In this document: positions 12,202 to 38,078 of the stretch, one piece after another
How the letters are laid out: each line of letters starts with the position of its first letter
Numbering within the stretch: position 1 is the stretch's first letter
Assembly (NCBI GenBank): GCA_963764165.1
Contig: CAVXRD010000002.1
Coordinates: forward strand, 2,656,001 to 2,720,000
DNA: 64,000 nucleotides
Source of the DNA: an uncultured Verrucomicrobiae bacterium
GTDB taxonomy: Bacteria > Verrucomicrobiota > Verrucomicrobiia > Limisphaerales > Palsa-1400
Reading direction: 5' to 3'
The notes under the pieces: generated by a model
Seen by the model: the letters and a program-made list of their open reading frames with translations, nothing else
The model's database searches: none
Told to the model about the DNA's origin: nothing
Translations under genes and position numbers: made by a program

Positions 12202-13041
12202 TTATGCCATGCGGGAAAGTGCTTTTCTGCGCAAGATCCGAATCGTGCTTGCGCCCAGCGGAAGCACCAGCAAAGCCCCGGAGATAATCGTGCCGGGTTC
12301 GGGCAAAGCAGCGTAGATCGTGGCGCTGCCCAAGGAAATACCACCCAAGAATGCCGCTCCTCCAGGTTGTGTATACGGGTCAGTGGTGTAGACATAAAAC
12401 ACTGCGGTTGCGTTAGATGCAAGCTCGCCGTTCGGTCCGTTAAAGTTCAATTCCAAGGTGTTGTCTGTCGGCACATTATCCTGAACACCGGAAATATTCG
12501 CGGTCCCAAAACCAACAGCATTTGAGCTGGCTTGGAAGAAGGTCAGACCTGCGCTTGCCGGCCCCCCGTCGACATGGTTTGTAGTATACGTGTAACTGGT
12601 CGTGTAGCTCGTGTATACATTAGTGTGATACACGGTATGAATGCCGCTGCCGGTGTGCGTAATATTAGTCGTATAAACGGGAGTCTCAACGGTATTGGTT
12701 GTCCGATATGTCGCAAGGTCCGTGTTGTGGATCGTGTACTCGAATAACAACGGGGCTCCAAGAGTCGCCGAGCCAACGCGAAACACTTCGGTCGTTATGG
12801 TTCCGCTGTCAGTGACCTCCCAAGGATACAAGCCACTGTAGCTGGTGTAGGCGCTTGTATAATCAATGATCTGGGTCAGTGGCAGGTTCAGACCGGTCGT
12901 TGAAAGGGTGGTCAGGCCGCCGGTGTTTGAAACGTTCTGCCCTGGCGTAATCTGAACCAGATTCGCCTGTGCAGTCGCCGCAGTTCCCAGAACGCCGGCC
13001 AGCAAAATCGCTTTTTGAAAGATTCCCATGTTGTTTTTCAT
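12202..13041 (-). CDS. PEP-CTERM surface protein 1 (Thr/Tyr-rich)
   Basis: Signal peptide ending TAQA; C-terminal LPEPGT, hydrophobic stretch, RILRRK. Confidence 0.9.
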   Translation of the reverse strand: MKNNMGIFQKAILLAGVLGTAATAQANLVQITPGQNVSNTGGLTTLSTTGLNLPLTQIIDYTSAYTSYSGLYPWEVTDSGTITTEVFRVGSATLGAPLLFEYTIHNTDLATYRTTNTVETPVYTTNITHTGSGIHTVYHTNVYTSYTTSYTYTTNHVDGGPASAGLTFFQASSNAVGFGTANISGVQDNVPTDNTLELNFNGPNGELASNATAVFYVYTTDPYTQPGGAAFLGGISLGSATIYAALPEPGTIISGALLVLPLGASTIRILRRKALSRMA

Positions 13042-13133
13042 ATCTCGGTTCCGTTTAATCAATTCTCAATTTCTTTATCTCAGTTTCAGTTTCCATACTC
13101 AATTATGGCGTGGCATATTCCTAAGACATGTTG

Positions 13134-13198
13134 ACTTTGCCGTCCTGCGCCTTTTTTCGCTATCCCATAAGAGGACATCGTTGCACATATTTGGGACA
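13134..13198 (-). promoter_or_regulatory. TGTCC direct-repeat box plus promoter for PEP-CTERM gene 1
   Basis: Minus strand TGTCC-N16-TGTCC-N10-TAGCGA-N17-CAAAGT. Confidence 0.7.
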
Positions 13199-13539
13199 TT
13201 CCCCTTGTTCGGAAAAAGTTCAGGCTGGAGATGAACCATCGTTACGCAAGTCGTTGCGGTGAAACGCGCTCGGCGCTGCGGGCGGAATTTCATGGGTCAA
13301 ATGCGCCTTGGACCGGCGAAATTAGGTTCGATCCGGGGGTGAAATGCCCCTTTCACGTGTCCGCAGGCCGAATGGCAACCACCGTCATAAAGACAGCTCT
13401 TGGGCTCGGCGGAACAAAAGAAAAAAGACGGACGCCAGGAGAGTTTTGGGCGCGAAAATTGCTTAATCCGAGGGACTGTAATCCAAATACTTGAACTTCA
13501 TTCGCTAATCAATTAACGTCTTTGCAACCCAGCGCCAAA

Positions 13540-14106
13540 ATGAAAAACATGAGCCATCGCAAGATGAACGTGCTAGTGGCCCGATGCGGCAACGCAACGG
13601 GCGCAGATCTCGAATTTACCTATTGGCGCGACGGAATGGCGTTTTTCCATAGCGAGTCGGTCCAGTGGCTTGATATTGCGCGCGCGGTGCTCTCGGTTTG
13701 CGCGCCAGACGTGATTGTTTTCGAGGGGAGTTCGCTTAACGGCGCCGTATTTGACGCCGCGAAACAAATGCGGTCGGCAAGTCCGGGCACAAAACTGCTG
13801 TTTGTTTGCGAAAAGGCAGACCAATTTGCGGCCTACCGCGCCCTGGCGGCTGGGGGAGATGGAATTTTAATCGGACGACAAAATCGCGAGGAACTTGCGT
13901 ATGCGATCTCCGAGATATTGTCGGGAGCCGCTTATATTGGAACCGGCATTTTCACCTCGAACCGCTTTCGTCGGCGGTTTCCCCGCCGAAATTACCTCCG
14001 GGACGAGAAAGCTCGCGCTTTTGGTGTCAAATGTGCGGAAAGGGCAAGAACCAACCCGTGCGGCCGTTTCGGGTCTTTGGCGGCGGAGAATATTGCCACC
14101 GAATAA
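13540..14106 (+). CDS. Atypical NarL-type receiver domain protein without a recognisable HTH
   Basis: PDVIVFE...PGTKLLFV...ALAAGGDGIL...EELAYAISEILSGAAY matches the NarL receiver pattern. Confidence 0.65.
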   Translation: MKNMSHRKMNVLVARCGNATGADLEFTYWRDGMAFFHSESVQWLDIARAVLSVCAPDVIVFEGSSLNGAVFDAAKQMRSASPGTKLLFVCEKADQFAAYRALAAGGDGILIGRQNREELAYAISEILSGAAYIGTGIFTSNRFRRRFPRRNYLRDEKARAFGVKCAERARTNPCGRFGSLAAENIATE

Positions 14107-14388
14107 CGGTCGAGCCGGGCGCTTCGGTCGTTTTCACGGTCGAGGAGAGGCGGCGGCAATTCCCGCCATTTTGCCGGAAAATGGTTTCATAAGCCGGGCA
14201 TTGTTTCGATTCGTTGGCTTAATTTCGGGAAGGCTCTCCACAGGATGAATGTAATCTTGGAGCGGGGCGCAAATCCTCTCGCCTTTTCCCATTCACGTGG
14301 ATCCGCCGCCCGCCGAGTGCCATATCTGTCGGCGGGCAATTCTGCATTTTCAATTTTCAACTCATGCCTTGGCGGCTGAAAATGGAAA

Positions 14389-14454
14389 TGTCCAGATGCC
14401 GATTCATGATGTCCAAAATGTGCATAGACGGTTTCTGCCGCATGAATGTAGCCT
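14389..14454 (+). promoter_or_regulatory. TGTCC direct-repeat box plus promoter for response regulator 14478
   Basis: TGTCC-N16-TGTCC-N10-TAGACG-N18-TAGCCT. Confidence 0.7.
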
Positions 14455-14477
14455 ATAGACATCACAGGGAATAGCGC

Positions 14478-14885
14478 ATGATGCAATCAATCTTGAAGGC
14501 CGAAACGGATGTCGGCTCTGGAACTCCAACCCCATCAACCATATTGTGCGTCGATGTGAATCACAGGACACGGCTGCTGACCAAATGGTTTTTATCAAGC
14601 ATCGGTTACGCTGTTGATGCCGCCTCAACTGCGGCGGAAGCGCTGGCAATTTTCGACGCCGCAACGCACGATTTGGTCATCGCAGACGATGATCTCGGCG
14701 GGATGACGGGCGAGGAGATGGCTCATGTGATCAAAATCAGGTCGTGCGCCACGCGAGTGATGTTGATCTGCAAAAAGCCGGCACGAAGTCTGGCCTGTGT
14801 CGATTTGGTGGTGCAGAAGCCCATCTCGCTTCCTTTATTGAGGGATAAACTGGAATGGTTGCGGTCAAAGCATGTTACTGCATGA
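14478..14885 (+). CDS. Single-domain response regulator (CheY-like)
   Basis: ILCVD, HDLVIADDDLGGMTG, VVQKP. Confidence 0.85.
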   Translation: MMQSILKAETDVGSGTPTPSTILCVDVNHRTRLLTKWFLSSIGYAVDAASTAAEALAIFDAATHDLVIADDDLGGMTGEEMAHVIKIRSCATRVMLICKKPARSLACVDLVVQKPISLPLLRDKLEWLRSKHVTA

Positions 14886-15052: not shown

Positions 15053-15874
15053 CTAGGCGTTCGAAGAACCTTTTCGAAACTTGCGAACCGCGCCGACACC
15101 GAGCGGAACCAACATCATGGCTCCCGCGACGATCGTGCTGGGTTCAGGGGTGGGCTCACCCAGAAGGAAGAATTCCTGGTCATCTCCCCCATTAGGGCCA
15201 TCGCCAGGGGCGCCAGTCCCTTGAAGAATGCTGCCATTATAAATGGGCATGTTGGGACCTGCATTCAACAAGGCGTTAATGTAAGCGTTGTAATCCTGCT
15301 GCTCGCTGGCATCAAATTGAGCAAATGGCGCCGAATACCCCGCTGAACTGAAAGACGACTGGCCGTAGGCGGTGCTGTTGTATAATACATTCCAGATCGC
15401 AAATTGCAGGGCGCAACCCTCTTCGCTCGCATTGCCGGCAAGATGCAAACCCGAGGTGGTTTGATCGACAATGTTCATGCCAAAGGTATGCCACAAGTAG
15501 GCCGCGTTGCAAATCCCCCAATCCTGAGTTTGTCCATGAACAACCCCCGATGCCCATTGCGAAGGGAAAATTCCTGGACTCGCTTGCGCAAAGGTCTCCT
15601 GATTGTAGGTATGCGTGTTTCCGTCGAGCAAACCCAGCGGGCTCAGACAAACGCTGTAAATCGTGTTTGGCAAGGTTATCCCAGTGGTTCCGGCCGTGTT
15701 GAATGCATAGATTCCAATGGCATCATCCGATTGAGCATCCCCGCCGGTAAAACCATCCTCCCAGACGCTGCCACTCCATTGGAACGTAAGGGTGATGTCC
15801 GCATGTGCTGTGCACATTCCCGCAACCCCGGCAGCAAGCGTCAGCGCCAGTTTTCCGATTGATTTCAATGACAT
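15053..15874 (-). CDS. PEP-CTERM surface protein 2 with thioester-domain-like motifs
   Basis: Signal peptide ending TAHA; YSVC, NAAYLW, ALQFAIW, DQEFFL; TPEPST, hydrophobic stretch, RKFRK. Confidence 0.9.
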   Translation of the reverse strand: MSLKSIGKLALTLAAGVAGMCTAHADITLTFQWSGSVWEDGFTGGDAQSDDAIGIYAFNTAGTTGITLPNTIYSVCLSPLGLLDGNTHTYNQETFAQASPGIFPSQWASGVVHGQTQDWGICNAAYLWHTFGMNIVDQTTSGLHLAGNASEEGCALQFAIWNVLYNSTAYGQSSFSSAGYSAPFAQFDASEQQDYNAYINALLNAGPNMPIYNGSILQGTGAPGDGPNGGDDQEFFLLGEPTPEPSTIVAGAMMLVPLGVGAVRKFRKGSSNA

Positions 15875-15884: not shown

Positions 15885-15948
15885 ATTATGATTTAACGGC
15901 CCGAACTATCTATGCGAGTTTAGGACAAGCGAGGTTACTTTTAGGACA
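15885..15948 (-). promoter_or_regulatory. TGTCC direct-repeat box plus promoter for PEP-CTERM gene 2
   Basis: Minus strand TGTCCTAAA repeated at 21-bp period, then N10-TAGATA-N16-CATAAT; possible third half-site TGACC at 15965-15969. Confidence 0.72.
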
Positions 15949-16051: not shown

Positions 16052-17716
16052 TTATTGTCGCGCCAACTCAAATAGCCGCTTTTCTTCGGGAAGGTGGCGG
16101 GTCTTCTCGGCAATTTTTAGATACTTTTGTGCCTTTGCAGAGTCCCCGTTCGCTTTCAAGATGATACCGTAATATCCCGCGACGCTCGGATTTTCCAATT
16201 CGCCTTCATTTAATTTCTCCATGACGCGCAGCGCGTCTGGATTTTTCTTCTGAAGGAAGAGCGAGAAGGCATATGTCGAGGCGAAGGAAGAGTTTGTCGG
16301 GCTGCTTTGGTAAACCTCGCGCGCCATATCGTCCGGCTTAAGGTCCTTCTGCCCAAGCAAGAGCGCCGTCATCGCCAAGTTGTTCTTGTACAACAGGTCT
16401 GAAGGCTGTGACTTAACCTCGGCGCGAAAGAGGTTAAGGAGGGATGTTGTGCGGGAATCAAGGAAGAAAATAGTCGCCAGGGCTTGCACCGCCCACCTCT
16501 CGTCCGGGTGCTGCCTGATAATGGTCCACAACAACTCTTCCGTCTCCTTCTGCCAGCCCCACGACGCGGCAAGCTTAAGAAGCATGGTTTGGTTCATTTT
16601 TTGGCCCGCCGCAGCGGCCAGAGCTTGATCCCACTGGCCTTTGGAGGACTCAGTCAAGTCCAACTGCTTGAGGGCAAACGACAGAAACGCGTGCCGAACG
16701 AAGTCCGAGCCCGCCCAATTCTGCTTTTCGAGCGCCTTTTGCATCCCTGACCAGTCCTTGGCAATGATTTGGAATTCCGCCGAAAGCAAAGCCGCTGGCT
16801 GGTTGGTGCGGGTTGCCGGAGGAAGGCTGGTCAGCCAGGCAAGACCGTCGCCAATCTCACCGTGGGTTTGCTGCCACGTCGCCAATTGATACAGTTTGGT
16901 GGGGTTGCTGGAGGCCTCATGCTCGCAATTCGTCATAAACGGTTTGTATTCAGAATTGTGAGCGGCGCGAAGCACTTCCAATCGCGCCATGCGATCGCTG
17001 AAGTCCGCGTTGGTGGCATCCACGAGGTCCTTGGATAGGCTCAGCGCCGCGGAATCGTTGGTAAACCGCACCGCATCCCCGATCAACTCACGCATCGCCT
17101 GGTGGCGAAGCACCGCATTGGTGGCGTTCACGCTCAAGCTCTGCAGGGTGATGCGCGCTTTCGCAATGGCCTCTTTATTGGTTCCGCGGATATCGACCAT
17201 GGACAGATCAAGGAGAGGCATGGGATTTTGGGGATCGAGCCGCGAAGCCTCCGCAAAATGCTCTTTGGCCGTTGAGAACATATTCATCGCGGCGAAAACG
17301 CTTCCCGCCACAGTTTGATATTCGACGGATTGCTTCCCTTCCTCGGTCACGCCCTCCAAGGCGTTTGTTGCCGTGGGCAAATCCCGGAAAATGACAGCTG
17401 CCTTGGCCAAAGCCAGCCGATCCTCGGTGGATTTTGGATTTAGTTCAACCGCCAGCGAGCGCCAAAGCATTGCTTCCGGAGAGCGGCTCGATTCAAGCAC
17501 TTCCGCAGCCAGGCGAGCGCCTTCGAGATTTCGGGGATTGGTGGCCAATGCCATTCGCAGGCTCAAAATAGCGTTCCGATTGTCTGAATTGGCATAAAAT
17601 TGCCGGGCCATGGAAAGAAGATGCTGCTGCTTCCACACCAAATAAGCACGATACCCAGCGTAAAGAACAAGAATGGTTAAAGAACACGATATTAGCAGGA
17701 CGAATAACTTTCGCAT
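16052..17716 (-). CDS. Membrane-anchored tetratricopeptide-repeat protein
   Basis: N-terminal hydrophobic anchor; helical repeats such as ALATNPRN, EASRLDPQNP, YKNNLA. Confidence 0.8.
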   Translation of the reverse strand: MRKLFVLLISCSLTILVLYAGYRAYLVWKQQHLLSMARQFYANSDNRNAILSLRMALATNPRNLEGARLAAEVLESSRSPEAMLWRSLAVELNPKSTEDRLALAKAAVIFRDLPTATNALEGVTEEGKQSVEYQTVAGSVFAAMNMFSTAKEHFAEASRLDPQNPMPLLDLSMVDIRGTNKEAIAKARITLQSLSVNATNAVLRHQAMRELIGDAVRFTNDSAALSLSKDLVDATNADFSDRMARLEVLRAAHNSEYKPFMTNCEHEASSNPTKLYQLATWQQTHGEIGDGLAWLTSLPPATRTNQPAALLSAEFQIIAKDWSGMQKALEKQNWAGSDFVRHAFLSFALKQLDLTESSKGQWDQALAAAAGQKMNQTMLLKLAASWGWQKETEELLWTIIRQHPDERWAVQALATIFFLDSRTTSLLNLFRAEVKSQPSDLLYKNNLAMTALLLGQKDLKPDDMAREVYQSSPTNSSFASTYAFSLFLQKKNPDALRVMEKLNEGELENPSVAGYYGIILKANGDSAKAQKYLKIAEKTRHLPEEKRLFELARQ

Positions 17717-17734: not shown

Positions 17735-19717
17735 CTAAACAGGGTTCTGGAGAGTGCCCGAAAACGGCGGAACTCCCGTCTCCGGGGCTGTCGACGGGGC
17801 TGGTAAAATGCTGTCCTCCGCGGCGGGCGTCACAGGCGGATGCGAGTTCAGCAGCAAATGATTTTGAAATCGCCATTCGGTAAGGGTTAATCCTCGTTCA
17901 GTGGCCAATCCCCGAAGTTTGGCCATGGCCTCTTCGCGCAACGCGGTCGTAATGACGATGCCGTTGATTTTATGCCGGCCAATCAACAGCGGCAGCTCAT
18001 CCAGTCCACCGAGCACCATGACGCCGTAGACCCACTGGAAATGCAGCGACGGCTCGTCGTCGATCAACCCAACGACATGCCTCCCATCAAAGCTGCTGGA
18101 ATTGTTGAAGCCGCGCTCCCGCAAAAACAACTGGCACCGGCCGCCAGCGCCATACAGGAGAATGCGGTCGCTCTCCTTGCCGATATCGGGTTTCATTCGC
18201 AGATAATCCAGCATCTCCTCGACGCACCGATACGCCACCCGAACCGCCAAGATTCCCGTATTGGCGAAAGCGCCAATAATGACGGCCCTGATAAACGCGG
18301 TGGATGTCCGCGTGGGATCGATCATCAAAGTGATTCCCACGCTGATGACAAGACCAACCAAGAGCGTTAATTCCAACGTGAGAATGTCGAACAGGCGCGC
18401 GCGCTGCCACACAATGACGTAGGTGCGGGACATCGCCAGCAGCGAGATGGTCGGCGTCACCCAGATTGGCAAATCAACAAACCACGTATGCCAGAAGTTT
18501 GCGGTCGGCGGGTCGCAATACCTCATGGCCAGCGCGCGGGCGGCGCCCAGGCAAATGACGTCCCACACAGGCACCAGAAGGGCGCGCAGCGTCGATTGGG
18601 AGGGCCGCTTCAACCCTGTCAATAATACTCTGCCCGTTTCGCGCAGCTCAATGACGGCCATGCGGCGCAGGAGCACGTAAGCGACAACCAAGACTGTAAT
18701 CAGAAAAATGCCGGTCGTGCGGGCATGAAAGGTCGTCAGCAGCAAACCAAAGAAAACCAGCATCGCATTGGTGAAAAAAAGCGTGGACGCGACTCGAGGC
18801 GTGCTCAATCCGGTCTTGGCAAGACGGTGATGCAGATGATCCAAATCAGGCTGCATAATCCCTGGACGCTTCTTGCTTCCGCCAGCGACAGCGGAAGCCA
18901 GGATGCCACGCATGGTGCGGCGCCATATGGCCAGCAAAGCATCATAAATAGGAACGCCAAGCACCATCATCGGGATTCCCAACGAGAGGGCAAAGGTGTT
19001 TTTGTTGTAGGTCTGGAGCGCCACCGAGCCCAGGATAAAACCGAGAAACATGCTCCCGGTGTCGCCAAGAAAAATTGTGGCCGGATGAAAATTATACCGA
19101 AGGAATGCCAGGCATGCGCCGATCAACCCCAGCAACACCAGGACGTTTCCGGGAGAATGATTGATGGCGAAAATTCCGCCCAGCCCAATCGCTGAGATCA
19201 CGGCCAGCCCCGAGGCCAGCCCGTCCAGGCCGTCGATTAAATTAAACGCGTTAATGGTCCCCAAAAGCCACAATTCCACCATGAGGAAGTCCAGCCAGAC
19301 CGGCAGCGGGCATCCGAAAATTTCACCGAACCGGGCGCCATTCAAAAACATGATCGCGGCGGCGGCAGCTTGCCCGGCCAGCTTCACGAGAGGCTTCATC
19401 CCCCGAACATCGTCCACCAAGCCGACAACCAATAACACCAGAGACGCTGGCAGGAAGCCTTGCCACCAATGGAAATCAAGATCGGCGGAAAATTTCGGCC
19501 ACGGGAAGAATAATCCGACCGCGCAAGCTGCGTAGACGCCCAGAACAACGGCCACCCCGCCGGCCCGCGGCGTCACGCGTTTGTGCGGCCGCCGCGCGTC
19601 CGGCTTGTCCACCACACCGAATCGAATCGCCAGAGCGCGGACCAGCGGCGTCAGGACGTAGGTGACGACAACTCCGCAGAGGAATACCGTTATATACTTA
19701 TCGAGGTAGCCAAACAT
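17735..19717 (-). CDS. WecA/MraY-family polyprenyl-phosphate sugar-1-phosphate transferase fused to extra TM helices and a Rossmann-like domain
   Basis: VGLVDD, NAFNLIDGLDGLA, FLGDTGS, DLDHLHH; C-terminal ILLYGAGGR and VVGLIDDEP. Confidence 0.88.
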   Translation of the reverse strand: MFGYLDKYITVFLCGVVVTYVLTPLVRALAIRFGVVDKPDARRPHKRVTPRAGGVAVVLGVYAACAVGLFFPWPKFSADLDFHWWQGFLPASLVLLVVGLVDDVRGMKPLVKLAGQAAAAAIMFLNGARFGEIFGCPLPVWLDFLMVELWLLGTINAFNLIDGLDGLASGLAVISAIGLGGIFAINHSPGNVLVLLGLIGACLAFLRYNFHPATIFLGDTGSMFLGFILGSVALQTYNKNTFALSLGIPMMVLGVPIYDALLAIWRRTMRGILASAVAGGSKKRPGIMQPDLDHLHHRLAKTGLSTPRVASTLFFTNAMLVFFGLLLTTFHARTTGIFLITVLVVAYVLLRRMAVIELRETGRVLLTGLKRPSQSTLRALLVPVWDVICLGAARALAMRYCDPPTANFWHTWFVDLPIWVTPTISLLAMSRTYVIVWQRARLFDILTLELTLLVGLVISVGITLMIDPTRTSTAFIRAVIIGAFANTGILAVRVAYRCVEEMLDYLRMKPDIGKESDRILLYGAGGRCQLFLRERGFNNSSSFDGRHVVGLIDDEPSLHFQWVYGVMVLGGLDELPLLIGRHKINGIVITTALREEAMAKLRGLATERGLTLTEWRFQNHLLLNSHPPVTPAAEDSILPAPSTAPETGVPPFSGTLQNPV

Positions 19718-19771: not shown

Positions 19772-20968
19772 TCAACCGCATCGTTCTAACATGTTGGCAA
19801 TCATGTCGCAAGTGGCGTTCATGTGAAACCGCGCGCGCGCGAAGTTCAAGGCGGCTTCGCCCCGGCGCGCGCATTCGGCGCGGTCAGACGCCTGTTTTAC
19901 CGCCTCGAGCAATGCCACCTCGTCATTTTGTTCGACAACCCAGCCTCCCCCGGATTGCATAATCCATTCCGCGGTTTCACACTTTGTGCCCCCGACATAG
20001 AGCACCGGGCGGCCGACCGCAAAACTCCCCTGCAGCTTGCTCGGAACAATCGTGCCTTGCCAATTGGCGTCGAGGCTTACCAGATGCACATCGGCGGAGC
20101 ACAGGTGCGCGCGCAGCTTGGCCGCTGGAACGTAACCCAGCATCTCGATGTTCGCGCCAGGATGGGATTTCGCGAACGATTCCACTTCGCTCCGGCGTTT
20201 CCCGCCACCGCTGAAAACCCAGCGGGGGCCGGATGAACCGAGGTGCGCCGCCGCGGCGAGGAACTCGCCAAAGCGATGTCCCAGCCCCATATTTCCTGAA
20301 TAAAGAAAAATCGTCTCGCGATTCGCCCATCGGCGCTCGGCGCGCAACGCATCCACCGCTTCTGGAGCAGCCGGACCGAGGCTTGGGTCACTCCAAAGTG
20401 GCGCCCATTGAACCGCTGGAGCATACAACGACACGCGTTCCGCCATGCGCGGCCCCAAGGCAAGCACCAGCTTTGCGTTCCTGAGTTGAGCCTTCGTCAT
20501 CTGTTGGAGAAATCGGTAAAGCAGCGATTTATTCGAAGTCATTCCGTGAGAAGCCATCACGTCTGGATACAGGTCCATAATCCAATGAGCATGGCCGCAC
20601 CGCCGTGTCCAAGCCGCGAACCTGGCCAGGACTCCAGCGTAGGGTGGCGTTGTCAATGAGAGGATTAAATCCGGCTTGAATTTATCCAATGTTACCGCGC
20701 CGGCTAAAGACGTGTAGAATGTGGCGTAATCGCTCATTTTTCCAACGAAGTTCTTTCTCCCCAAGCCAGTGGCGAACAGCCGCCGCACTTCCACACCATC
20801 CCGGACCTCCCGCGGCGCAAAAGATTGCGTCCCGTCATACGAATTTCGGGAGCACAGAACTTTGATCGCATGGCCGCGCTTGGCGAGCGATTTTGCCAGA
20901 TCATGAAGGTAGACGCCGGTCGGCGCGACGTCCGGGGGATAAAATTGATTTATGAAAAGCAGGCGCAT
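19772..20968 (-). CDS. Glycosyltransferase family 4 (WcaI-like)
   Basis: INQFYPPD, MDLYPD, YSGNMGLGH, VPSKLQG. Confidence 0.9.
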   Translation of the reverse strand: MRLLFINQFYPPDVAPTGVYLHDLAKSLAKRGHAIKVLCSRNSYDGTQSFAPREVRDGVEVRRLFATGLGRKNFVGKMSDYATFYTSLAGAVTLDKFKPDLILSLTTPPYAGVLARFAAWTRRCGHAHWIMDLYPDVMASHGMTSNKSLLYRFLQQMTKAQLRNAKLVLALGPRMAERVSLYAPAVQWAPLWSDPSLGPAAPEAVDALRAERRWANRETIFLYSGNMGLGHRFGEFLAAAAHLGSSGPRWVFSGGGKRRSEVESFAKSHPGANIEMLGYVPAAKLRAHLCSADVHLVSLDANWQGTIVPSKLQGSFAVGRPVLYVGGTKCETAEWIMQSGGGWVVEQNDEVALLEAVKQASDRAECARRGEAALNFARARFHMNATCDMIANMLERCG

Positions 20969-22661: not shown

Positions 22662-23230
22662 TTGGCCAGAGCCGGACTGCGCTCAACAAGGTCACGGCGG
22701 CGAACAAAGACTGCCGGATTGCCCTGGCAGATGGCCCAGGGTTCGAGATCCTTGGTGGCAACGGAGCCGGCCGTCAACACGGCGTGTGTTCCGACATTGA
22801 CACCCGGCGCGACCCAGCTTCCCGCCCCCAGCCACGCGCCTTCCTGAACTGTTATCGGGCGCACGATCAGATCAAATGCGGGCTGTTTGTAGTCATGGCT
22901 TCCAGTGCAGAGGAAGGCCCGCTGGGAAATGCACACGTGGCTTCCAATGGTGATGCTGCCGAGGTTCAACAACCAGCATTCCTCGCCAAGCCAGACGTGA
23001 TCGCCAACCCGGAGCTTCCACGGAAATGTTATTTTGACGCGAGGCTTGATCACGACTCCCTTGCCGATCTCTCCGCCAAAGGCGCGCAGAACAGCGCATT
23101 TCAGCGCGGAAAGACTTACGGGGCACAACTCGAACAGAACAAAACTGCATAGCAGCCAGGCGGTTTCCTTCAACCTGCCAGCGCCGCGGTCAAATTGCGG
23201 ATTTGAAAACTTGGAAAGGTCTACTGGCAT
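22658..23230 (-). CDS. wcaF: WcaF-like hexapeptide-repeat acetyltransferase
   Basis: MPVDLSKF start; FPWKLRVGDHVWLGE, ISQRAFLCTGSHDY, GNPA. Confidence 0.85.
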   Translation of the reverse strand: MPVDLSKFSNPQFDRGAGRLKETAWLLCSFVLFELCPVSLSALKCAVLRAFGGEIGKGVVIKPRVKITFPWKLRVGDHVWLGEECWLLNLGSITIGSHVCISQRAFLCTGSHDYKQPAFDLIVRPITVQEGAWLGAGSWVAPGVNVGTHAVLTAGSVATKDLEPWAICQGNPAVFVRRRDLVERSPALAN

Positions 23231-24405: not shown

Positions 24406-24413
24406 AGCCGCTC

Positions 24414-29622: not shown

Positions 29623-30402
29623 TTAAAAGTGGACCAGCCGCTCCGGGATGAAAATCAAGTCGCCGTCCTGCAGCTGCAGATCCGCCGCCCGATCTCCCCG
29701 CTTGAGCACTTCTTCGACGTCCACGGTGAACACTTGGTCCTTTTCGCCTAGGTTGACTGGCTTGCGAGTCACTCGAACCTTTTTGCGATCAGCGTATTCG
29801 GTGAATCCGCCAGCCCGCAGAATGGCTTTGCTCAACGTAAGGGTCTCGTCGCTTGGAATATCCTGGCCGCCCGGCACACCCACAGGCCCGACGATGTAAA
29901 CTTTTCCCTGGGTCCGAGCCCACTGTTGCACGGCAACTATGACGGTGGCGTGGTAATAATAATCCTTCTCCAATTCGCCCTGGAGCGCGCGCGCCAATTC
30001 CTTGCAGGTCTTCCCCGTTGCGGCATAGAGTCCAATATAGGGAAGCTCGAGCTCCCCGGAATCATTGACTGTTAACTGCAATGACGGCTCGTCATCTTCC
30101 ACGATTCTAAAGCTTACCTTGTCGCCCTTGGTCAGCTTATACTTGTCGTCAAGCACCTCCATGTTATCAATTCGTCCGGTGGCCGCCGGCTTGGAGGCTT
30201 CGGTTTGCGGCGGGGCTGGCAGCCTCAAGGAGCCACCGATGTCATTCGTCTTGACCCGATTCGGGGGACTCCAATTTGTTCCATAATCGACCGTCATTGG
30301 CACATTGCCCTGGCCGCGCAACTGCCATGCCGGAAGAACGATCATCATCGCAAGGCAGATGACGCGCGAGATTATATTGCCATGTATGCGAGATTGTTTC
30401 AT
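29623..30402 (-). CDS. wza: Polysaccharide export protein (Poly_export plus SLBB)
   Basis: YKLTKGD, GELELPYIG, KAILRAGGFT, LQDGDLIFIPE. Confidence 0.88.
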   Translation of the reverse strand: MKQSRIHGNIISRVICLAMMIVLPAWQLRGQGNVPMTVDYGTNWSPPNRVKTNDIGGSLRLPAPPQTEASKPAATGRIDNMEVLDDKYKLTKGDKVSFRIVEDDEPSLQLTVNDSGELELPYIGLYAATGKTCKELARALQGELEKDYYYHATVIVAVQQWARTQGKVYIVGPVGVPGGQDIPSDETLTLSKAILRAGGFTEYADRKKVRVTRKPVNLGEKDQVFTVDVEEVLKRGDRAADLQLQDGDLIFIPERLVHF

Positions 30403-31754
30403 GAGGCATGATAGGTAAGTCGAATACCGAAGACATCCTGGCTGTAATCGCGGCCCCCTTGCGAGGAAGAGCGCACTGAACTGCGCACATTTACTCCGGC
30501 GTCGAACCGTTTGGTAATGCTATAGGAGGTGGAGAAGCTCGCGCCAACCCAATCGTAGCTTTCGGTCAAATTGCCGCGCACATTGCCGACGCCCTGCGTT
30601 CCATAATTATAAGATATTCCGGTCGAAAAATTAAGCTTCCCCAAGATTGCCCACCTGACAGTTGCATCCACAAACCATTCTTCAACCGCGTCCGACTGGA
30701 GACCCGCGCTTATGTCGTGGCCGGCTTTTAAAGTATAGCCAATGGATTTCGTCACCTGATGGGTCAGGGACAAGTTCGCATACCACGAACTCAGTCCGGA
30801 GGTCTGGATCGGCATGCTCGACGGGACCGCCACCGGGTTGACATTTCCCTGGGACTCATTCGGCACGAATGAGGATCTGCTTGTGTTTTGAAAGTCATAA
30901 ACAGCATAGCCAACCCGCGGCTGCAATTGAAACGCGGGATCGGGTTTCCAGTCGGCAAAAACACCGGCGTTGTAACTCTCGTTGTTGTTCAAGATCGGCT
31001 GGTCGTATTCCAGGAAGGACGCGCCGAGTTCAGCGCCCGACTTGAAGCTGGACGAAAACGCATAGGAAAGCTGGTCTATCAAGCTCTCTGTCCCCGAGTC
31101 CTGCGAATTAAATTCGCCAGTGGTTGATTCATTTAGAATATAGTCAAAACCCAAGCTGTCGGACAGCCTTCCAAAATCATGAGACACAATGATGCCGGAG
31201 CGGTTCCTCAGGGTGCCGAACTCGCCGGTGCCGGCAATCAACGGATTCTGGCTTGAGTCCTGGATGTAACTGATTGAATCGTGGATGTTGAACATGAACG
31301 GGCCGACGCCGAAATTGAACGAAGGGCCGCTTCCGGCGGTTATATTAAGCGTGCTCAGTTCGCTATGGTGCAGGTACTCGATATATCCAATTCCCAGGCT
31401 CAATTTCAATAAATTGCGGTCCGTTAATGCGTAGCTGCCTGTCAAGTCAAGTTCCGGCCTGAGTATGAAATCGCCACTCGATCCTGACTGTGCCAAAGTC
31501 ACGTTGTCGCTCCAGTCCGCCTCAATCGAACCGGTCGCGAGCATTTGAAAGTCCCCATATTTCCAAGTGTATGGGCCTCGCGCAAGTTGGTTGTTTTTGT
31601 AGTTGTCCAGTGCTAAAAAGCTGGATAACGCCTGTTGCGCGGGCGCCGGGAAAATGGGTGCTAAGAAGGCCAATGCCCCAAGGACGAAAACGGCGCCGCG
31701 TGCGTTCCAGCCACGTTGGTTTCGATGCATAACAGTCATTCGCAGAGTCTTCAC
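30399..31754 (-). CDS. EPS-associated outer-membrane beta-barrel protein
   Basis: Signal peptide, amphipathic beta strands, ends GIRLTYHAS; overlaps araC stop and wza start. Confidence 0.8.
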   Translation of the reverse strand: MKTLRMTVMHRNQRGWNARGAVFVLGALAFLAPIFPAPAQQALSSFLALDNYKNNQLARGPYTWKYGDFQMLATGSIEADWSDNVTLAQSGSSGDFILRPELDLTGSYALTDRNLLKLSLGIGYIEYLHHSELSTLNITAGSGPSFNFGVGPFMFNIHDSISYIQDSSQNPLIAGTGEFGTLRNRSGIIVSHDFGRLSDSLGFDYILNESTTGEFNSQDSGTESLIDQLSYAFSSSFKSGAELGASFLEYDQPILNNNESYNAGVFADWKPDPAFQLQPRVGYAVYDFQNTSRSSFVPNESQGNVNPVAVPSSMPIQTSGLSSWYANLSLTHQVTKSIGYTLKAGHDISAGLQSDAVEEWFVDATVRWAILGKLNFSTGISYNYGTQGVGNVRGNLTESYDWVGASFSTSYSITKRFDAGVNVRSSVRSSSQGGRDYSQDVFGIRLTYHAS

Positions 31755-32800
31755 ACCCCATAAGCGGGGCAGAGAAGCGTCCCCGGGGATCGTTTTTCCG
31801 CGCCTGCCTTCGGCGTCAAGTGCGCCGATACTGCTGAATTTTCATTGTCACCATCGTCGGCCCGCAGTATTTGGCTTACTTTCTCCTCCACGGCAAATGA
31901 CACCTTCCTCGCGGTTCCCTGAGTGGCGCTTGCTTCAAGGATGCGCGGACCCGCTTGGTTCGCGGCGCGAGGCGCCGGAGCGACCAGGCTAGCGGTCCGT
32001 CCGGATTTGCGCCATTGGCCGGGGCTGCTTCCAAATCGCCGCTTGAAGCAAGTATTGAAGAGGCCCAAGTGATTGAATCCGCACTGCTCGGCGACGTTGA
32101 TCACTTTCGTCTCCGGATTGCGCAGGAGCGACACAGCTTTCAACAATCGCATCTCCATGCGCAGGGCCGCCACGGAATAACCAAAATGCTGGTGAAATAG
32201 CCTGTTGAGGTGGCGCCGGCTGCAGCCAAATTTGGCAGCCAGATCCCCCACCGACAGCGTCAGCAGCTCATCGACCGAAAGCGCTTCAAAAACCTTTATC
32301 ACCCGCTCATCCGCGCCAAACACGACGTTGCGCTGCGACCGCGCAGAGCTCAATTCTTCAGTAATCACGGCAGCGGCAACTCTGACCAGCTGGCTTCGGT
32401 GGTCTACATTTCCTTCCGGCGGCGCGCTTTCCACCAAGCGATGGCATTCCTGCGCCACGGCGCTCGAAGCAGCGTAATGTTTGCAATGGGTCAGATCATC
32501 AACGATTCCCTGCAAAAGACAAATTTCCTCGGCCGAGAAGAGCGGCAACAGGTGCTCGAAGCAGACCGTGAACTGCCAAAAAATCATCTCCCCGCCAGGA
32601 ACCAGATTTGCCGACGGCCCCGGGCTCGAGACAATAACGTCGCCGGCGTTCACATGGACACGCTGAGACCGGGATTGGTAGACGCCGCTGCCGCCCTTGA
32701 GCAGAATGAAAGACAATCCCTCTGCTGTGTCCTTCCAGTCGTTGGGGCGTTGCAGACGCACTAAGCGCAAGGTCAAATATTGCTTTTTTGTTGTCGACAT
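31751..32800 (-). CDS. AraC-family transcriptional regulator, first gene of the EPS/exosortase operon
   Basis: LAAKFGCSRRHLNRLFHQHFG and VAEQCGFNHLGLFNTCFKRRFGSSPGQWR double HTH. Confidence 0.95.
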   Translation of the reverse strand: MSTTKKQYLTLRLVRLQRPNDWKDTAEGLSFILLKGGSGVYQSRSQRVHVNAGDVIVSSPGPSANLVPGGEMIFWQFTVCFEHLLPLFSAEEICLLQGIVDDLTHCKHYAASSAVAQECHRLVESAPPEGNVDHRSQLVRVAAAVITEELSSARSQRNVVFGADERVIKVFEALSVDELLTLSVGDLAAKFGCSRRHLNRLFHQHFGYSVAALRMEMRLLKAVSLLRNPETKVINVAEQCGFNHLGLFNTCFKRRFGSSPGQWRKSGRTASLVAPAPRAANQAGPRILEASATQGTARKVSFAVEEKVSQILRADDGDNENSAVSAHLTPKAGAEKRSPGTLLCPAYGV

Positions 32801-33018: not shown

Positions 33019-33035
33019 AGCAAAGGTCGGGCCAA
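33019..33035 (-). promoter_or_regulatory. Sigma54-like (-24/-12) promoter upstream of araC
   Basis: Minus strand TTGGCCCGACCTTTGCT, GG-N10-GC. Confidence 0.55.
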
Positions 33036-33767
33036 TGTCCAAAAATTGGAATGTAAATTTCTAATGCGCTGAACTCAAGACAGTTATGCCCAGCCTAGGG
33101 GCATTATTAGCGTTGCGAAAACCCGTTTATTTGCCGTTTTGAATGCACAAATCTGAGACAGCGAGCATGGCGATCACCAAGATGTCGCAATTCAGCCATC
33201 CAGATTTAACAAATCGCCCTTGGCAGCCCTCTGGGCGTCCCAAACATCCGCTCCTGGCTTCCTCGTTAAAACCAGTATAGGCACTATTTCAATAGTCGCC
33301 ACCGGCGGGAGAACAAAACCGAGCTGATCCTTCGGATTTCGCCAAATCCGAGCCATGATGATTGCAAACGATTTATAAGCAATCCCTTATGATAGAATGA
33401 AGATATAAATCTAACACCGCGCCCCAAGAGCAAAACGTCAAATATGCCGACAACCAAATTTGCAAGAATGCGAAGAAAGCGTGGATGGATCAAGGTCGAC
33501 CGCGCAAAATTAATGGCATTATTGGGCTGGCCTAAACGTGTATTTGTCTTCAGCCATATCGACCCCAAAATCGGAAATCATTCGTGTTTCTGCCAAGCAC
33601 CGGGAGAAAACGGACATGAATTTCAGGCGGCGGCGACGCCAGGGGCGCGATATTAGTGCCGCCATTGATTATCTGGGCCAGTGATCGATCAGCCGGCCAG
33701 AGAATGGAGGGGCATCGGAAGGCCGTCCACTTCAAGAATTTCTGAACCGCCCAAACCTGCTTCTTGT

Positions 33768-33832
33768 TGTCCCAAAAACGCACTAACATGGCCCATCCCC
33801 GCATAGCGTCAAAATTGGAATGGGGTTAAATT
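33768..33832 (+). promoter_or_regulatory. TGTCC direct-repeat box plus promoter for PEP-CTERM gene 3
   Basis: TGTCC-N16-TGGCC-N10-TAGCGT-N17-TAAATT. Confidence 0.68.
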
Positions 33833-33937: not shown

Positions 33938-34816
33938 ATGTTGAAAAGTCAGAAATTGATCGTGCATGGCGCCCTGATTGGGGCTTTTTGTTTTGCCGCG
34001 CAACAAAGCGCTCAGGCTACACTTTCGTATACGATTTCGAATGGATACGTCGGCGGAGCCACTGAAAGCGGCTACGCGGACCTGCAAGTGGTCAACATCT
34101 CTCTGGACAACTCAGGGCCGATGAGCGTGTTTTGTGGAGGCATTCAAATCAGCGAGGCCGGAGCGCCAGTGGCGGGCATGCCGACGCAGTATACAACCGT
34201 TTGCACGGATCTTAACGCGACGCTCTATCTCGGCGACACCTATACCTACAACCGGACGGCCTCGTTCAGCGGGCTGGCGGGAATCGATCCGACGTGGGGC
34301 GCCGCGAATGGTTTGCAGGCTGCTTCCATTAATGCGCAGAACGCGACGCAGTCCATTGAGAATGCCGCTTACATATTTTACAATTTCGGCCAATTGAACA
34401 CCCGGGGAATAAACGGATCCGCAGACCAGATGGCTGGTTTGCAGCTGGCGGTCTGGCTTGCCCTTTATGACACCACCACGTCGGGACAAGTGGTCGTGGG
34501 TGGCAGCTCCCGAATGCAGATTTCAGGAAACGGAGGAGACACTGCGGCGGTGACCGACGCGTTAGATTATCTTTCCGCCTTGAACCAGTCCGGCCACGCC
34601 GGGAATTTTTCGTATGACGGCGGTATTCTGGTGCCGAACCCGGAGACATCCGACAATGGCAGCCCCTACAACAATTCCAATTACGACAATCAACCGCCGC
34701 AGGAATTGCTGGTCGCGGTTCCGGAGCCTTCCACATTCGTTGGCGGCGCACTGTCGCTGATGCCCTTGGGCTTGGCTGGGCTCCGGTTCATCCGGACCCG
34801 GGCAACGGCAAAGTAA
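33938..34816 (+). CDS. PEP-CTERM surface protein 3 with thioester-domain-like motifs
   Basis: Signal peptide ending SAQA; TTVC, NAAYIF, GLQLAVW, PQELLV; VPEPST, hydrophobic stretch, RFIRTR. Confidence 0.9.
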   Translation: MLKSQKLIVHGALIGAFCFAAQQSAQATLSYTISNGYVGGATESGYADLQVVNISLDNSGPMSVFCGGIQISEAGAPVAGMPTQYTTVCTDLNATLYLGDTYTYNRTASFSGLAGIDPTWGAANGLQAASINAQNATQSIENAAYIFYNFGQLNTRGINGSADQMAGLQLAVWLALYDTTTSGQVVVGGSSRMQISGNGGDTAAVTDALDYLSALNQSGHAGNFSYDGGILVPNPETSDNGSPYNNSNYDNQPPQELLVAVPEPSTFVGGALSLMPLGLAGLRFIRTRATAK

Positions 34817-35197: not shown

Positions 35198-35869
35198 ATG
35201 AAACAACGCGCGCGCGCAAAATTGCGAAAGGTCTTTCTGGTTGAAGACCATCCGGTGTATGCCGAAGGGCTGGTTGAGATCGTTGAAAACGAACCCGATC
35301 TGTCTTTCTGCGGACAAGCTTTCACTGCCGAAGATGCTTTGCGGGCAATCCCCCGCCTCCAGCCGGACTTGGTGCTTATCGACATCACTCTGCCGGGAAT
35401 GAGTGGGCTGGATTTAATCAAAGCGCTCCGGCCAAAGTTCCCCGCGATGAAACTTCTGGTCATATCCATGCGGGAGGAACAGCTCTACGCAGCCCGGGTG
35501 TTGCGAGCCGGCGGCGACGGCTATGTGATGAAGCATCAGGGCGCCGAGGAGATTATTGATGCGATTCGTGATTTGCTCGCCGGGCGCTTGCACGTGAGCG
35601 AATCCATCATCTCAGGCAATTTTAAAAGCGCCGACCCAAAGACGCAGCCTCGCAAACGGCCGATTGACCGGCTGAGCGATCTGGAGCTGGAAATCCTTGG
35701 ATTGCTGGGCGCTGGAAAAAGCAATCCCGAGATCGCCTCGCAATTGAATATAAAATCCAAAAATCTGCCGGGGCATTTTGCCGAGATGCAAAAGAAACTT
35801 CGTTTGAAGAGCATCAACTCGCTGATTCGATACGCTGTCTGCTGGGCCGGCGCGGGCGAGGCTGATTAG
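35198..35869 (+). CDS. NarL/LuxR-family DNA-binding response regulator
   Basis: VEDHP, LIDITLPGMSG, LSDLELEILGLLGAGKSNPEIA. Confidence 0.93.
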   Translation: MKQRARAKLRKVFLVEDHPVYAEGLVEIVENEPDLSFCGQAFTAEDALRAIPRLQPDLVLIDITLPGMSGLDLIKALRPKFPAMKLLVISMREEQLYAARVLRAGGDGYVMKHQGAEEIIDAIRDLLAGRLHVSESIISGNFKSADPKTQPRKRPIDRLSDLELEILGLLGAGKSNPEIASQLNIKSKNLPGHFAEMQKKLRLKSINSLIRYAVCWAGAGEAD

Positions 35870-35874
35870 GCGAA

Positions 35875-37386
35875 TTAAGCCACCCCCTGGCGCGGCTTGC
35901 GATCGGCCAATGGAATGCGCACGGTGATGGCGGTGCCTTCATTCGGCTTTGAAACAAATGCGCAGGTTCCTCCCAGCGCGGAAGTCCGTTCCCTGATGCT
36001 CGACAAGCCGATGCCCCGCCGCCGATCACCATCGGATGATTCGGCAGCGGTCGTGTCAAATCCACAGCCGTCGTCGCGAATGCTGGCGCGCACCTCATTT
36101 GCCTCAACCACAATCCGCACGCGGACCAATTTGGCTTTGGCGTGTTTCTCGATATTGTTGAGCGCCTCCTGCACCACGCGAAACAGGCCCAGGTCGATAT
36201 TCGGGGGAAGGGTGCTGCCATTCTGCACGAACCTGTACTTTACAACAAGCCTTGTTCGCGATTCCAGTTCGTTGCACAAGTTGCGGCAGGCGGCGCTCAA
36301 CCCGAGTTCATCGAGGTCGCCGGGGCGGAGATTTCTGGCGATGCGCCGGTTCTCGTCCAACGCCTGCACCAGCAGCAATTGGCACCGGGACAGAATTTCG
36401 GCGGCGACGGGGTTCTGCGCCCCCACCAGCTCATGAACGCGCCGGAGGCGCATCGTCGCGGCAGCGATGACTTGGATCACGCCGTCGTGCAATTCACGCG
36501 CGACTCGGGACCGTTCGGCTTCTTGCGCTTCAGTGATGCGCCGCGGCAGGCCACGCAGTTTTTCCTCCAGGCGCTTGTGGTCCGTCACGTCACGCGCGGC
36601 CATGATCAGGCCCAGGTTCTCTCCGCCTGGTGAGAGAGACATCGTTATATTCGTCTCCACTGGAAAACTGCGGCCGTCGCGGCGCACGAATTCGTACTCG
36701 GCGGCTTTCACCTCGCCGGTTTTGAACGAGGATATGTCTGCGCGAAAGCGGTCTCGGTCCGTCGGGTGGACGAAATCAAAGATGCTTTTCAGGTGCAGCT
36801 CGTCGATGTTCCCGTATCCCAGCATCACCGCCGTCCATTGATTCAGCCCGGAAACTCGAAACTCAGGATCGATGGTCGCGATGGAGTCCGGCAGAATTTG
36901 CACCAGTCTCCGGTAATGCTGCTCGCTCTCGCGCAGCGCTGCCGCTGTCTCGGCCAGCCGCGCGATGGAGCGAACCCGCGCCAAAAACTCTTTCGCCGCC
37001 ACTGGCTTATGAAGGTACTCGTCAGCGCCGATCGCCAGCCCGCCCGCCGTCTGATCCGCGCTGATCGCTTCCCCAGAAATGAGGATAACGAATACATCGC
37101 GGGATTTTGGGTCTGCCTTGATGCGTTGGCAAACGTCGATCCCGCTTATGTCCGGCAGCCCGACGTCGAGCACCACCAGATCCGGTTTCCATTCCAGCAC
37201 CGCCTTCAGCGCCTGGGCGCCATCCGTGACGGCCAAAACATCAAAGCCGCCCTTGATGAGGACTTGAGAAAAAACCTCCAGGATCGACTCATAATCATCC
37301 ACTATAAGCACACGCGTCTTTCGGCGCGGCGGATTATGAGCCCCCTCGCTGCTATTGGGGCCATTGGTCTTTGGAGATGGTGTCAT
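35875..37386 (-). CDS. Cytoplasmic hybrid sensor kinase (REC-PAS-HisKA_3-HATPase)
   Basis: VDDY/VLDVGLPD receiver; VHPTDR PAS; ARELHDG; QEALNNIEKHA; DDGCGF; no TM segment. Confidence 0.92.
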   Translation of the reverse strand: MTPSPKTNGPNSSEGAHNPPRRKTRVLIVDDYESILEVFSQVLIKGGFDVLAVTDGAQALKAVLEWKPDLVVLDVGLPDISGIDVCQRIKADPKSRDVFVILISGEAISADQTAGGLAIGADEYLHKPVAAKEFLARVRSIARLAETAAALRESEQHYRRLVQILPDSIATIDPEFRVSGLNQWTAVMLGYGNIDELHLKSIFDFVHPTDRDRFRADISSFKTGEVKAAEYEFVRRDGRSFPVETNITMSLSPGGENLGLIMAARDVTDHKRLEEKLRGLPRRITEAQEAERSRVARELHDGVIQVIAAATMRLRRVHELVGAQNPVAAEILSRCQLLLVQALDENRRIARNLRPGDLDELGLSAACRNLCNELESRTRLVVKYRFVQNGSTLPPNIDLGLFRVVQEALNNIEKHAKAKLVRVRIVVEANEVRASIRDDGCGFDTTAAESSDGDRRRGIGLSSIRERTSALGGTCAFVSKPNEGTAITVRIPLADRKPRQGVA

Positions 37387-37566
37387 GCTTGTTGAAAGCA
37401 GCACTGCAATTTTCTTGGCATGCCATCATAAATGCATGCAAGCCGCAAAGGGCAAGAAAAATGCAGTGCGCGCCATGAAAACGGTAAAAAAGCGCCGGGA
37501 GATTGAGCGTGATTCAATCGAATTCGAATCGCCCCTGAATTTTTCCACGAGATTTCCGCCGCATGC

Positions 37567-37630
37567 TGTCCGCATCATGCAGTTTGATGTCCCAAAGAAG
37601 ATAGACGGTCATCACTCCAGCCCGTAGCCT
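37567..37630 (+). promoter_or_regulatory. TGTCC direct-repeat box plus promoter for response regulator 37650
   Basis: TGTCC-N16-TGTCC-N9-TAGACG-N17-TAGCCT. Confidence 0.7.
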
Positions 37631-37649
37631 CCTAATTATCAACGATCCC

Positions 37650-38078
37650 ATGCAGAACAAAGAGGACCACGAAATTCCGGAAGCCGAAGCAACGAGTGCG
37701 CAAGTCAGCAATTCAATCCCAAAGACCGTCCTATTAGTGGACGACAGAATGGAATTGAGGTTCGTCACCAAAACCTATTTGGAGAATTTTGGATTTATCG
37801 TCCAGGTTGCGGGGAGCACGGCAGAGGCTCTTGCGCGATTCGATTCCAACAGCAACGATATCGTCGTCACGGACAACTCGATGACAGGGATGTCGAGCGT
37901 GGAGATGGCGCACGTGATTAAAATGCGCTCGCCATCCACGCCGATCATCATGTATTCGGGTTCCCGGCCGCGCGACCGTTCCTCTGTCGACGCCGTTATT
38001 TTAACGCCCTCGCCTTTGTCAGAACTAAAGCTGGCGATTGATGATGCGCTTTCGCGGAAAGAAGGCCCGAAGAGTTAA
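37650..38078 (+). CDS. Single-domain response regulator, paralog of 14478
   Basis: LLVDD, DIVVTDNSMTGM, EMAHVIK shared with 14478. Confidence 0.87.
   Translation: MQNKEDHEIPEAEATSAQVSNSIPKTVLLVDDRMELRFVTKTYLENFGFIVQVAGSTAEALARFDSNSNDIVVTDNSMTGMSSVEMAHVIKMRSPSTPIIMYSGSRPRDRSSVDAVILTPSPLSELKLAIDDALSRKEGPKS

Follow-up and report, generated by a model that had tools for sequence, protein, structure and literature searches.

In this study, we describe a PEP-CTERM/exosortase/exopolysaccharide (EPS) module in a 64,000-nucleotide stretch of a Limisphaerales genome (the window, G000:C2:2656001-2720000, where G000 is the source assembly of 7.0 Mb in 5 contigs). The genes of this module share a 21-bp direct-repeat promoter box, which is likely bound by the AraC-family protein encoded at the head of the EPS operon, acting as an activator; we assign a probability of about 0.62 to this reading. 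Coordinates without a prefix are window positions, and Gnnn, Lnnn and C denote a genome, a locus and a contig. The comparison sets comprised 27 family genomes and 301 order genomes, and the locus sets of 8, 20 and 35 used below overlap.

The box consists of ATGTCCCAAAAGTG repeated directly with a 21-bp period, and it ends on a -35-like TAGAC. In the consensus of the 111 unique sites from all loci examined, ATGTCCCAAAAGTG occupies positions 0-13 and again 21-34 and is followed by ATAGAC; past TAGAC, a -10-like nAnnnT peaks at a 17-bp spacer (28% of these sites, compared with 4-6% at shorter spacers). The original prediction, made from the window sequence, had proposed a shared box with a single TGTCC. 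The common box is upheld, and the single TGTCC is not, since the box is a direct repeat. An exact TGTCC-N16-TGTCC pair occurs 4 times in the window (0.06 expected), always between genes and oriented with the next gene, and a fifth site has TGGCC in its second half. The pair followed by a downstream SATAG likewise occurs 4 times (0.00 expected), with the extended pattern having been drawn from these same sites. Genome-wide, the exact pair alone is not enriched (22 matches, compared with 3-33 at other spacings), and the signal lies in the longer motif. An earlier, looser pattern produced many chance matches inside genes and was tightened for the later counts. The sites in the window, before the PEP-CTERM genes PEP1 to PEP3, the receiver genes REC1 and REC2 and araC, are as follows:

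13160..13198, minus strand: box before PEP1, the best site of the genome (42.6 bits, rank 1, matrix trained without the source genome's sites)
14389..14427, plus strand: box before REC1 (rank 5)
15910..15948, minus strand: box before PEP2, between the TPR gene and PEP2 (rank 2)
33747..33806, plus strand: box before PEP3 at 33768-33806; a third half-site may lie at 33747 (ranks 4 and 9)
37567..37604, plus strand: box before REC2, an exact TGTCC pair with a poor leave-one-out score
32941..32981, minus strand: degenerate box before araC (score 0.9)

The box precedes five window genes, and each of the genome's five variant-tail PEP-CTERM genes has one. When the 7 Mb were ranked with a matrix built from 44 sites of other genomes, the first six ranks went to PEP1, PEP2, a 2286-aa protein, PEP3, REC1 and the fourth variant-tail gene, and the fifth variant-tail gene ranked fifteenth; this ranking is not fully independent because the training sites were chosen by a pattern that descends from the source genome. 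The REC2 site falls outside the top 30, as the distance to its GATAG is shorter by one base than elsewhere, and the PEP2 box is followed by a promoter-like TAGATA-16-CATAAT. Across genomes, the box stands before genes for variant-tail PEP-CTERM proteins, for stand-alone receivers and for a large Ig/HYR surface protein; in most relatives it also stands before araC. The boxed genes almost certainly form a shared regulon. Outside the window, a strong box lies before the 2286-aa secreted protein (G000:C2:258906-265787, L031:8907-15787), which contains SdrD-B, nine HYR_4C and Ig domains and is likely a giant adhesin of the same regulon. At L246:255 (G251), a box is divergent from a nonribosomal peptide synthetase and phosphopantetheinyl-transferase pair, and similar transferases lie near boxes in G208.

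The candidate reader of this box is encoded by the first gene of the EPS operon:

31751..32800, minus strand: AraC-family regulator that falls in a 26-row orthologue clade and is predicted to bind the box

This protein has a DNA-binding domain with a pair of helix-turn-helix (HTH) units, and the box has the layout of an AraC/XylS-like site, in which tandem bipartite half-sites reach the -35 element of the predicted promoter and the -10 element follows at 16-18 bp. Sites of the XylS type have a 21-bp period and overlap with the -35 element. A conserved motif calls for a conserved reader, and for this reason we favour AraC over the NarL-type regulator of the module: helices 3 and 6 of AraC are 0.84 and 0.85 identical, compared with 0.41 for its N-domain (27 rows), whereas the recognition helix of NarL is 0.28 identical, compared with 0.68 for its receiver (20 rows). 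Four NarL paralogue rows and eight fragmentary or distant AraC rows were dropped before this comparison. According to the accessible text of PMC5481539, XylS binds two direct repeats that have A and B boxes, via helices 3 and 6, and the window protein resembles XylS/Pm and other AraC-type activators both in its two-HTH domain and in the two bipartite direct-repeat half-sites that reach the -35 position. These sequence features argue that AraC is probably the direct binder of the box. Unlike XylS, the window AraC would control surface and matrix genes rather than catabolism, and many orthologues have a C-terminal CPLxxxGLCP motif. This two-cysteine motif, which occurs just after the DNA-binding domain in approximately 14 of 24 aligned orthologues (e.g., L015:50-1117, L118:5497-6561 and L126:4803-5846) and which the window AraC lacks, is possibly a metal or redox sensor. 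In L010, L011, L136 and L265, an N-terminal region related to the window AraC is fused to a long domain in proteins of approximately 1000 aa.

The operon headed by araC was described in the original prediction as a run of approximately 16.7 kb, and profile matches confirm it as a minus-strand run from araC to the TPR gene (32800-16052, 16,749 bp). After araC, the genes occur in the following order:

30399..31754, minus strand: outer-membrane beta-barrel, weakly EpsL/TIGR03016-like; its start overlaps the araC stop by 4 nt
29623..30402, minus strand: Wza-type export protein
27411..29609, minus strand: Wzc tyrosine autokinase / chain-length protein
25688..27178, minus strand: Wzy-like membrane protein (TIGR04370 E 1e-4, below cut-off)
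24414..25685, minus strand: GT4 glycosyltransferase
23221..24543, minus strand: GT4 glycosyltransferase, true start probably later
22658..23308, minus strand: WcaF-family acetyltransferase, true start probably later
21021..22661, minus strand: exosortase (PF09721, 145 bits), with a C-terminal region of approximately 240 aa that is weakly EpsI/XrtD-like
19772..20968, minus strand: WcaI-like GT4
17735..19717, minus strand: WecA/MraY-type initiating transferase fused to a CoA-binding-like sugar-transferase N-terminal region
16052..17716, minus strand: PrsT-like TPR protein (64 vs 312 bits, far below cut-off)

All gaps are at most 54 bp, save 232 bp between wzc and wzy, and the barrel/wza junction is also a 4-nt overlap. 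Linked EPS biosynthesis and export genes, as expected of a PEP-CTERM/exosortase system, are present.

The box tracks the AraC orthologue. This orthologue was found in 10 of the 27 family genomes and, with six candidates scored per genome, in 23 of the 301 order genomes; the AraC relatives with a stated lineage (38 loci) are mostly Verrucomicrobiota, many of them Limisphaerales or subdivision 3. The box pattern was fixed on the family genomes before the order-wide search, and it matches 30 of the 301 order genomes, compared with 0 for the reversed pattern used as a control. It was found in 13/23 AraC-positive and 17/278 AraC-negative genomes, or in 10/17 and 16/272 outside the family. Most matches in relatives stand before variant-tail PEP genes, REC2 or araC; those in a few genomes (G131, G133 and G169) look like chance. 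The variant-tail profile matches 41 of the 301 genomes, namely 18/23 with AraC and 23/278 others, and 22 of the 30 with a box, so that the proposed co-occurrence of AraC, box and tail holds across the order. A quick tree was built from 53 AraC-like rows, with G024 left out as partial and with box labels of our own. In it, the 26-row orthologue clade has an SH-aLRT of 99, and 22 of its 25 genomes have box evidence, one of them marginal. The synteny that had been suggested as a check is likewise confirmed, with barrel, wza or wzc following araC in 7 of 8 family loci. The same is true of 17 of 20 order loci (one lies 2.6 kb off, two are unlinked and one is cut off) and of 27 of the 35 loci with enough flanking sequence. 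Further downstream, G019 and G143 retain the xrt-wcaI-wecA-TPR block. A box before araC scores higher than any shuffle in 18 of 26 regions and in 28 of 35 (overlapping sets), and its presence there in relatives points to autoregulation. More divergent araC genes stand before EPS export genes in L236 (G239), L304 (G050) and L306 (G291), together with short open reading frames (ORFs); one of these ORFs is NusG-like and suggests antitermination in deeper versions of the locus.

Several observations weigh against AraC as the reader. The box patterns and matrices derive from the source genome's sites, two araC-upstream sites sat in the training set of the 26-region scan, and the Fisher P values for the association of AraC, box and tail are overstated because the genomes are related. 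In the window, the degenerate box before araC scores over the 95th percentile of the shuffles and under their maximum (2.9). Three genomes of the clade (G118, G268 and G273) have no box. Conversely, an AraC orthologue occurs in only 12 of the 22 genomes with box and tail; the remainder include one araC fragment at a contig end, one divergent EPS-linked araC and three genomes with paralogues only. The other five of the 22 (G117, G146, G248, G286 and G317, 87-96% complete) have strong boxes and no AraC match at 1e-22, and G286 keeps barrel-wza-wzc without araC. This pattern, in which AraC implies the box and the box does not imply AraC, is also expected from an upstream regulator.

One alternative explanation is that some other regulator binds the box and that araC is one of its targets, a middle tier driving the EPS operon. 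The five box-rich assemblies and G286 in particular speak for it, and a box before araC in most relatives fits a target as well as autoregulation. However, exosortases are absent altogether from two of the five assemblies, Wzc from three and the barrel from four, which suggests missing contigs, and the site layout is AraC-like. Moreover, no other regulator recurs among the 47 ORFs neighbouring the boxes in AraC-less genomes. A second AraC (G000:C5:78048-78980) is the sole AraC common to all five, and we rejected it as the binder because it occurs whether or not there is a box, in 67 of 80 order genomes, including 28 of 36 without box or AraC; it is highly conserved, and its neighbours are often a kinase and a NarL paralogue of the canonical kind. 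We consider control by another regulator unlikely.

A further proposal places sigma-54 above AraC. The original prediction had envisaged a cascade from sigma-54 to araC and from there to the boxed genes; the link between araC and the box is likely, and the sigma-54 tier is not conserved. The site in question is the following:

33019..33034, minus strand: sigma-54 -24/-12-like match before araC, not conserved

This good match lies 234 bp upstream of araC, where the local box is weak, and abuts an inverted half-box at 33036-33048 (plus strand); moreover, the genome encodes about 12 NtrC-type activators. However, a comparable match was found in 1 of 26 upstream regions, that of the source genome, and in 1 of 35 in a second set. 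Because this frequency is near the shuffled rate (1.4%), we dropped the tier, which would at most be a lineage-specific addition, and consider the sigma-54 cascade very unlikely. The -24/-12 motif was found before none of the 8 PEP genes tested, a number that is a lower bound and does not include the fifth variant-tail gene. The reported absence of PrsK and PrsR from the window is correct and extends to the whole genome at the cut-off; the best scores are 119.6/300 bits for PrsK and 430.6/502.6 bits for PrsR, and PrsK or PrsR encoded elsewhere were rejected as regulators because these hits are below cut-off and unlinked. A full-length PrsK-like kinase below the cut-off (G000:C2:3362559; L229, 3362529-3366445) is followed by a receiver-kinase gene apparently split into two ORFs, and no PrsR or PEP gene was seen beside it.

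The remaining candidates belong to the signalling genes of the module:

13522..14106, plus strand: degenerate receiver-like ORF with no acidic pocket and no DNA-binding domain (Pfam E 0.07)
14478..14885, plus strand: REC1, stand-alone receiver, paralogue of REC2
35198..35869, plus strand: NarL/LuxR-type response regulator with an intact receiver and an unconserved recognition helix
35875..37404, minus strand: soluble REC-PAS-HisKA_3-HATPase kinase, whose orthologues usually lie beside the NarL orthologue
37650..38078, plus strand: REC2, stand-alone receiver

Binding of the box by NarL after phosphorylation by the soluble kinase, with the imperfect palindrome TGTCCCA-N4-TGGGATA as one conceivable site, is highly improbable. 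Its 20 best matches (37 candidates scored per genome) are all in genomes positive for box or AraC, with 0 from 36 negatives, although the one in G146 resembles a paralogue, and the gene adjoins boxes in many loci, including those of the AraC-less G117, G251 and G317. However, its unconserved recognition helix has a proline in the window copy, the paralogues keep a canonical helix, and G143 (7 contigs) has boxes and AraC with no NarL match at 1e-50. OmpR/PhoB and SARP-type sites have 11- or 22-bp periods, and we rejected such binding because these periods do not fit 21 bp. The NarL-type regulator and the soluble kinase had been correctly recognized, and the Pfam matches of the kinase include no membrane domain. 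Three stand-alone receivers had been proposed as well; two are clear (14478 and 37650), and the third, at 13522, is degenerate and has no orthologue in the related loci compared. REC3 (41226), which lies outside positions 12202-38078, was rejected as a member because it is a different receiver type and has no paired box. In 22 of 38 related loci, the REC2 orthologue is located upstream of araC at a distance of at most 3 kb, and kinase, NarL and receivers are co-inherited with the module. Their wiring as a phosphorelay is a tentative proposal that we hold at less than even odds.

We now turn to the cargo. Three PEP-CTERM genes with an identical tail had been reported; the three genes stand, and the identity does not, as pairwise comparison over 28 residues gives 12, 12 and 14 in common.

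12202..13041, minus strand: PEP1, secreted Thr-rich protein without Cys, not similar to thioester domains (TEDs), variant PEP-CTERM tail from 12306
15053..15874, minus strand: PEP2, TED-family PEP-CTERM protein (E 4e-12 to a domain profile built without PEP2)
33938..34816, plus strand: PEP3, TED-fold PEP-CTERM protein, tail from 34718

As read from the sequence, each protein carries a signal peptide, a PEP motif, a hydrophobic helix and a basic tail. We count the tail as a variant because no curated PEP-CTERM model of Pfam or NCBIfam matches the three proteins at E 0.1. Its consensus is VPEPTTxIAGALLLLPFGASTLR, with an invariant mid-helix proline that distinguishes it from the proteobacterial tail, and the family has five members in the genome. 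The partner of this tail is presumed, from proximity, to be the window exosortase, one of three in the source genome. This enzyme has Cys215, Arg219 and His280 and scores under every named subfamily cut-off (XrtD 114/400, XrtA 104/208 and XrtW 101/425). Like XrtD and XrtW, it is an eight-helix enzyme with a C-terminal extension, and judging from its sequence it likely represents an unnamed subfamily with its own tail. It had been described as an exosortase-EpsI fusion; the exosortase is supported, and the EpsI part is weak, since TIGR02914 reached E 0.003, below cut-off, in one of five exosortase C-terminal regions tested and did not match the window protein. The TPR protein (554 aa, TIGR02917) has orthologues of 43-54% identity that adjoin boxed PEP genes in relatives. 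A second exosortase-TPR pair (G000:C1:1394966-1398347, L230) is 35% and 21% identical to that of the window, a third, shorter exosortase lies at C2:2272276-2273289 (L231), and a second tail class without boxes is clustered at C2:645-648 kb.

The claim of thioester-like adhesins holds for PEP2 and PEP3, with the fold shown for the PEP3 family, and fails for PEP1, which has no Cys and one homologue besides itself. PEP2 contains Cys76 (15647-15649), QFAIW at 157 and Gln233 (15176-15178), with the additional Cys122 and Cys154; PEP3 contains Cys89 (34202-34204), QLAVW at 169 and Gln255 (34700-34702). PEP3 has 29 homologues besides itself at E <=0.001, and its profile including the tail gathers 2,663 cluster representatives. 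When the PEP3 model (predicted local distance difference test score 88.7) was compared with 48,161 chains, the top 8 were all TEDs (Z 9.0-10.6; next 3.9), superposed at a root-mean-square deviation of 2.9-4.0 over 144-166 aligned residues. The alternative is that these proteins keep the fold without a reactive thioester and act as non-covalent matrix proteins. It is favoured by the low identity to solved TEDs (8-14%), by a PDB sequence search with the TED-family profile that returned no match, and by the fact that most variant-tail cargo is not TED-like (the TED profile matches only 14 of 64 complete variant-tail ORFs). Also to be set against the thioester, Foldseek puts TED chains first at non-significant values (E 0.02 or worse), Pfam TED matches 9 of 26 homologues at E 0.002-0.09 and stays under cut-off, and Val stands in the Cys motif in place of the Y/F/L that the motif of Walden, as given in the accessible text, has. 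However, the lone Cys89 and the C-terminal Gln255 are jointly kept in 126 of the 132 covered rows among the best 150 homologues, and they lie in strands at the positions of that motif. Approximately ten further variant-tail ORFs have similar Cys and Gln motifs by eye, and the ESM Atlas search returned only unnamed clusters. A fold without the reactive bond is doubtful, and PEP2 and PEP3 quite probably form a real Cys-Gln thioester.

According to Walden 2015 (PMC4450167), in its accessible part, TEDs are found exclusively in Gram-positive bacteria. The domains described here share with the class I TEDs of Gram-positive TIE adhesins (CpTIE 5a0g, Cpa 2xi9, SfbI 5a0l and PnTIE 5a0n) the fold (Z 9-10.6), the Cys in a strand, the central QxxVW helix with its TQxx-W-type motif and the C-terminal Gln motif. 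Unlike those adhesins, they occur in a diderm host, their thioester is predicted, Val precedes the Cys, and the TED-like domain is fused directly to an exosortase tail, with no LPXTG anchor and no isopeptide or ester stalk.

Taken together, these elements suggest the following mechanism. Two AraC monomers would bind the box head-to-tail and recruit sigma-70 polymerase as XylS does, and binding before its own gene would establish positive feedback on the araC-barrel-wza-wzc operon. The exosortase would cleave the variant tails and place the proteins in the polysaccharide layer, where the internal thioesters of PEP2 and PEP3 could react with amines of the matrix, neighbouring cells or surfaces and so favour aggregates. 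In the weakest step, the soluble kinase, NarL with its degenerate recognition helix and the receivers may constitute a phosphorelay that tunes the switch through contacts between proteins and not by binding DNA. The product would be bound EPS and aggregates, by analogy with PepA, which in the accessible account turns soluble into bound EPS in Aquincola flocs (PMC9850573); on this analogy, an aggregate or floc role is somewhat favoured, and the aggregate or biofilm layer envisaged in the original prediction is likewise an analogy. The boldest version, in which a self-reinforcing AraC switch and a DNA-blind phosphorelay commit Limisphaerales to covalent gluing, with EPS and exosortase-sorted, stalkless thioester 'harpoons' cross-linking cells, matrix and surfaces, we hold to be doubtful.

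The closest published systems, compared here through the accessible parts of the papers, are the proteobacterial PEP-CTERM/EpsH(XrtA) system with PrsK, PrsR, PrsT and sigma-54 (PMC1569441) and the PepA/PrsT floc system (PMC9850573). With these, the window shares a Cys/Arg/His exosortase in a Wzy-type EPS locus, a TPR gene and single PEP-CTERM genes behind a common upstream motif. Unlike them, it has no PrsK or PrsR at the cut-off and no sigma-54 motif before its PEP genes, and its motif is a direct repeat on a sigma-70-type promoter with a regulator that is likely AraC. A literature search outside subscription journals and supplements found no published account of this box, of AraC control of PEP-CTERM genes or of TEDs with exosortase tails. 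On the sequence evidence, we consider it likely that this is a new regulatory variant of PEP-CTERM/exosortase/EPS systems, with AraC in place of the sigma-54 circuit. Haft 2006 (PMC1569441), in the part accessible, described the PrsK/PrsR/sigma-54 motif as proteobacterial, predicted others, and expected further PEP-CTERM regulators and DNA motifs outside the sigma-54 class to be found. The present case would supply one such regulator and motif, and its defined site, candidate protein and target list make AraC control testable without culturing the host. In an order of which most members are uncultured, the box can also mark genes for matrix and adhesion, and the variant-tail profile finds cargo overlooked by standard models. 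Real thioesters would explain in chemical terms how EPS is bound to cells by PEP-CTERM proteins; if the whole reading is true, PEP-CTERM systems would have a new regulatory architecture, and a diderm environmental lineage would be added to those with covalent adhesion.

Elsewhere in the window, a separate plus-strand polysaccharide cluster (223-12098 and L234) converges on PEP1; it contains glycosyltransferases, an acyltransferase-SGNH gene and KDO genes, and no box was found inside it. An insertion sequence transposase with DDE and DUF772 domains is located at 52061-53521 (minus strand).

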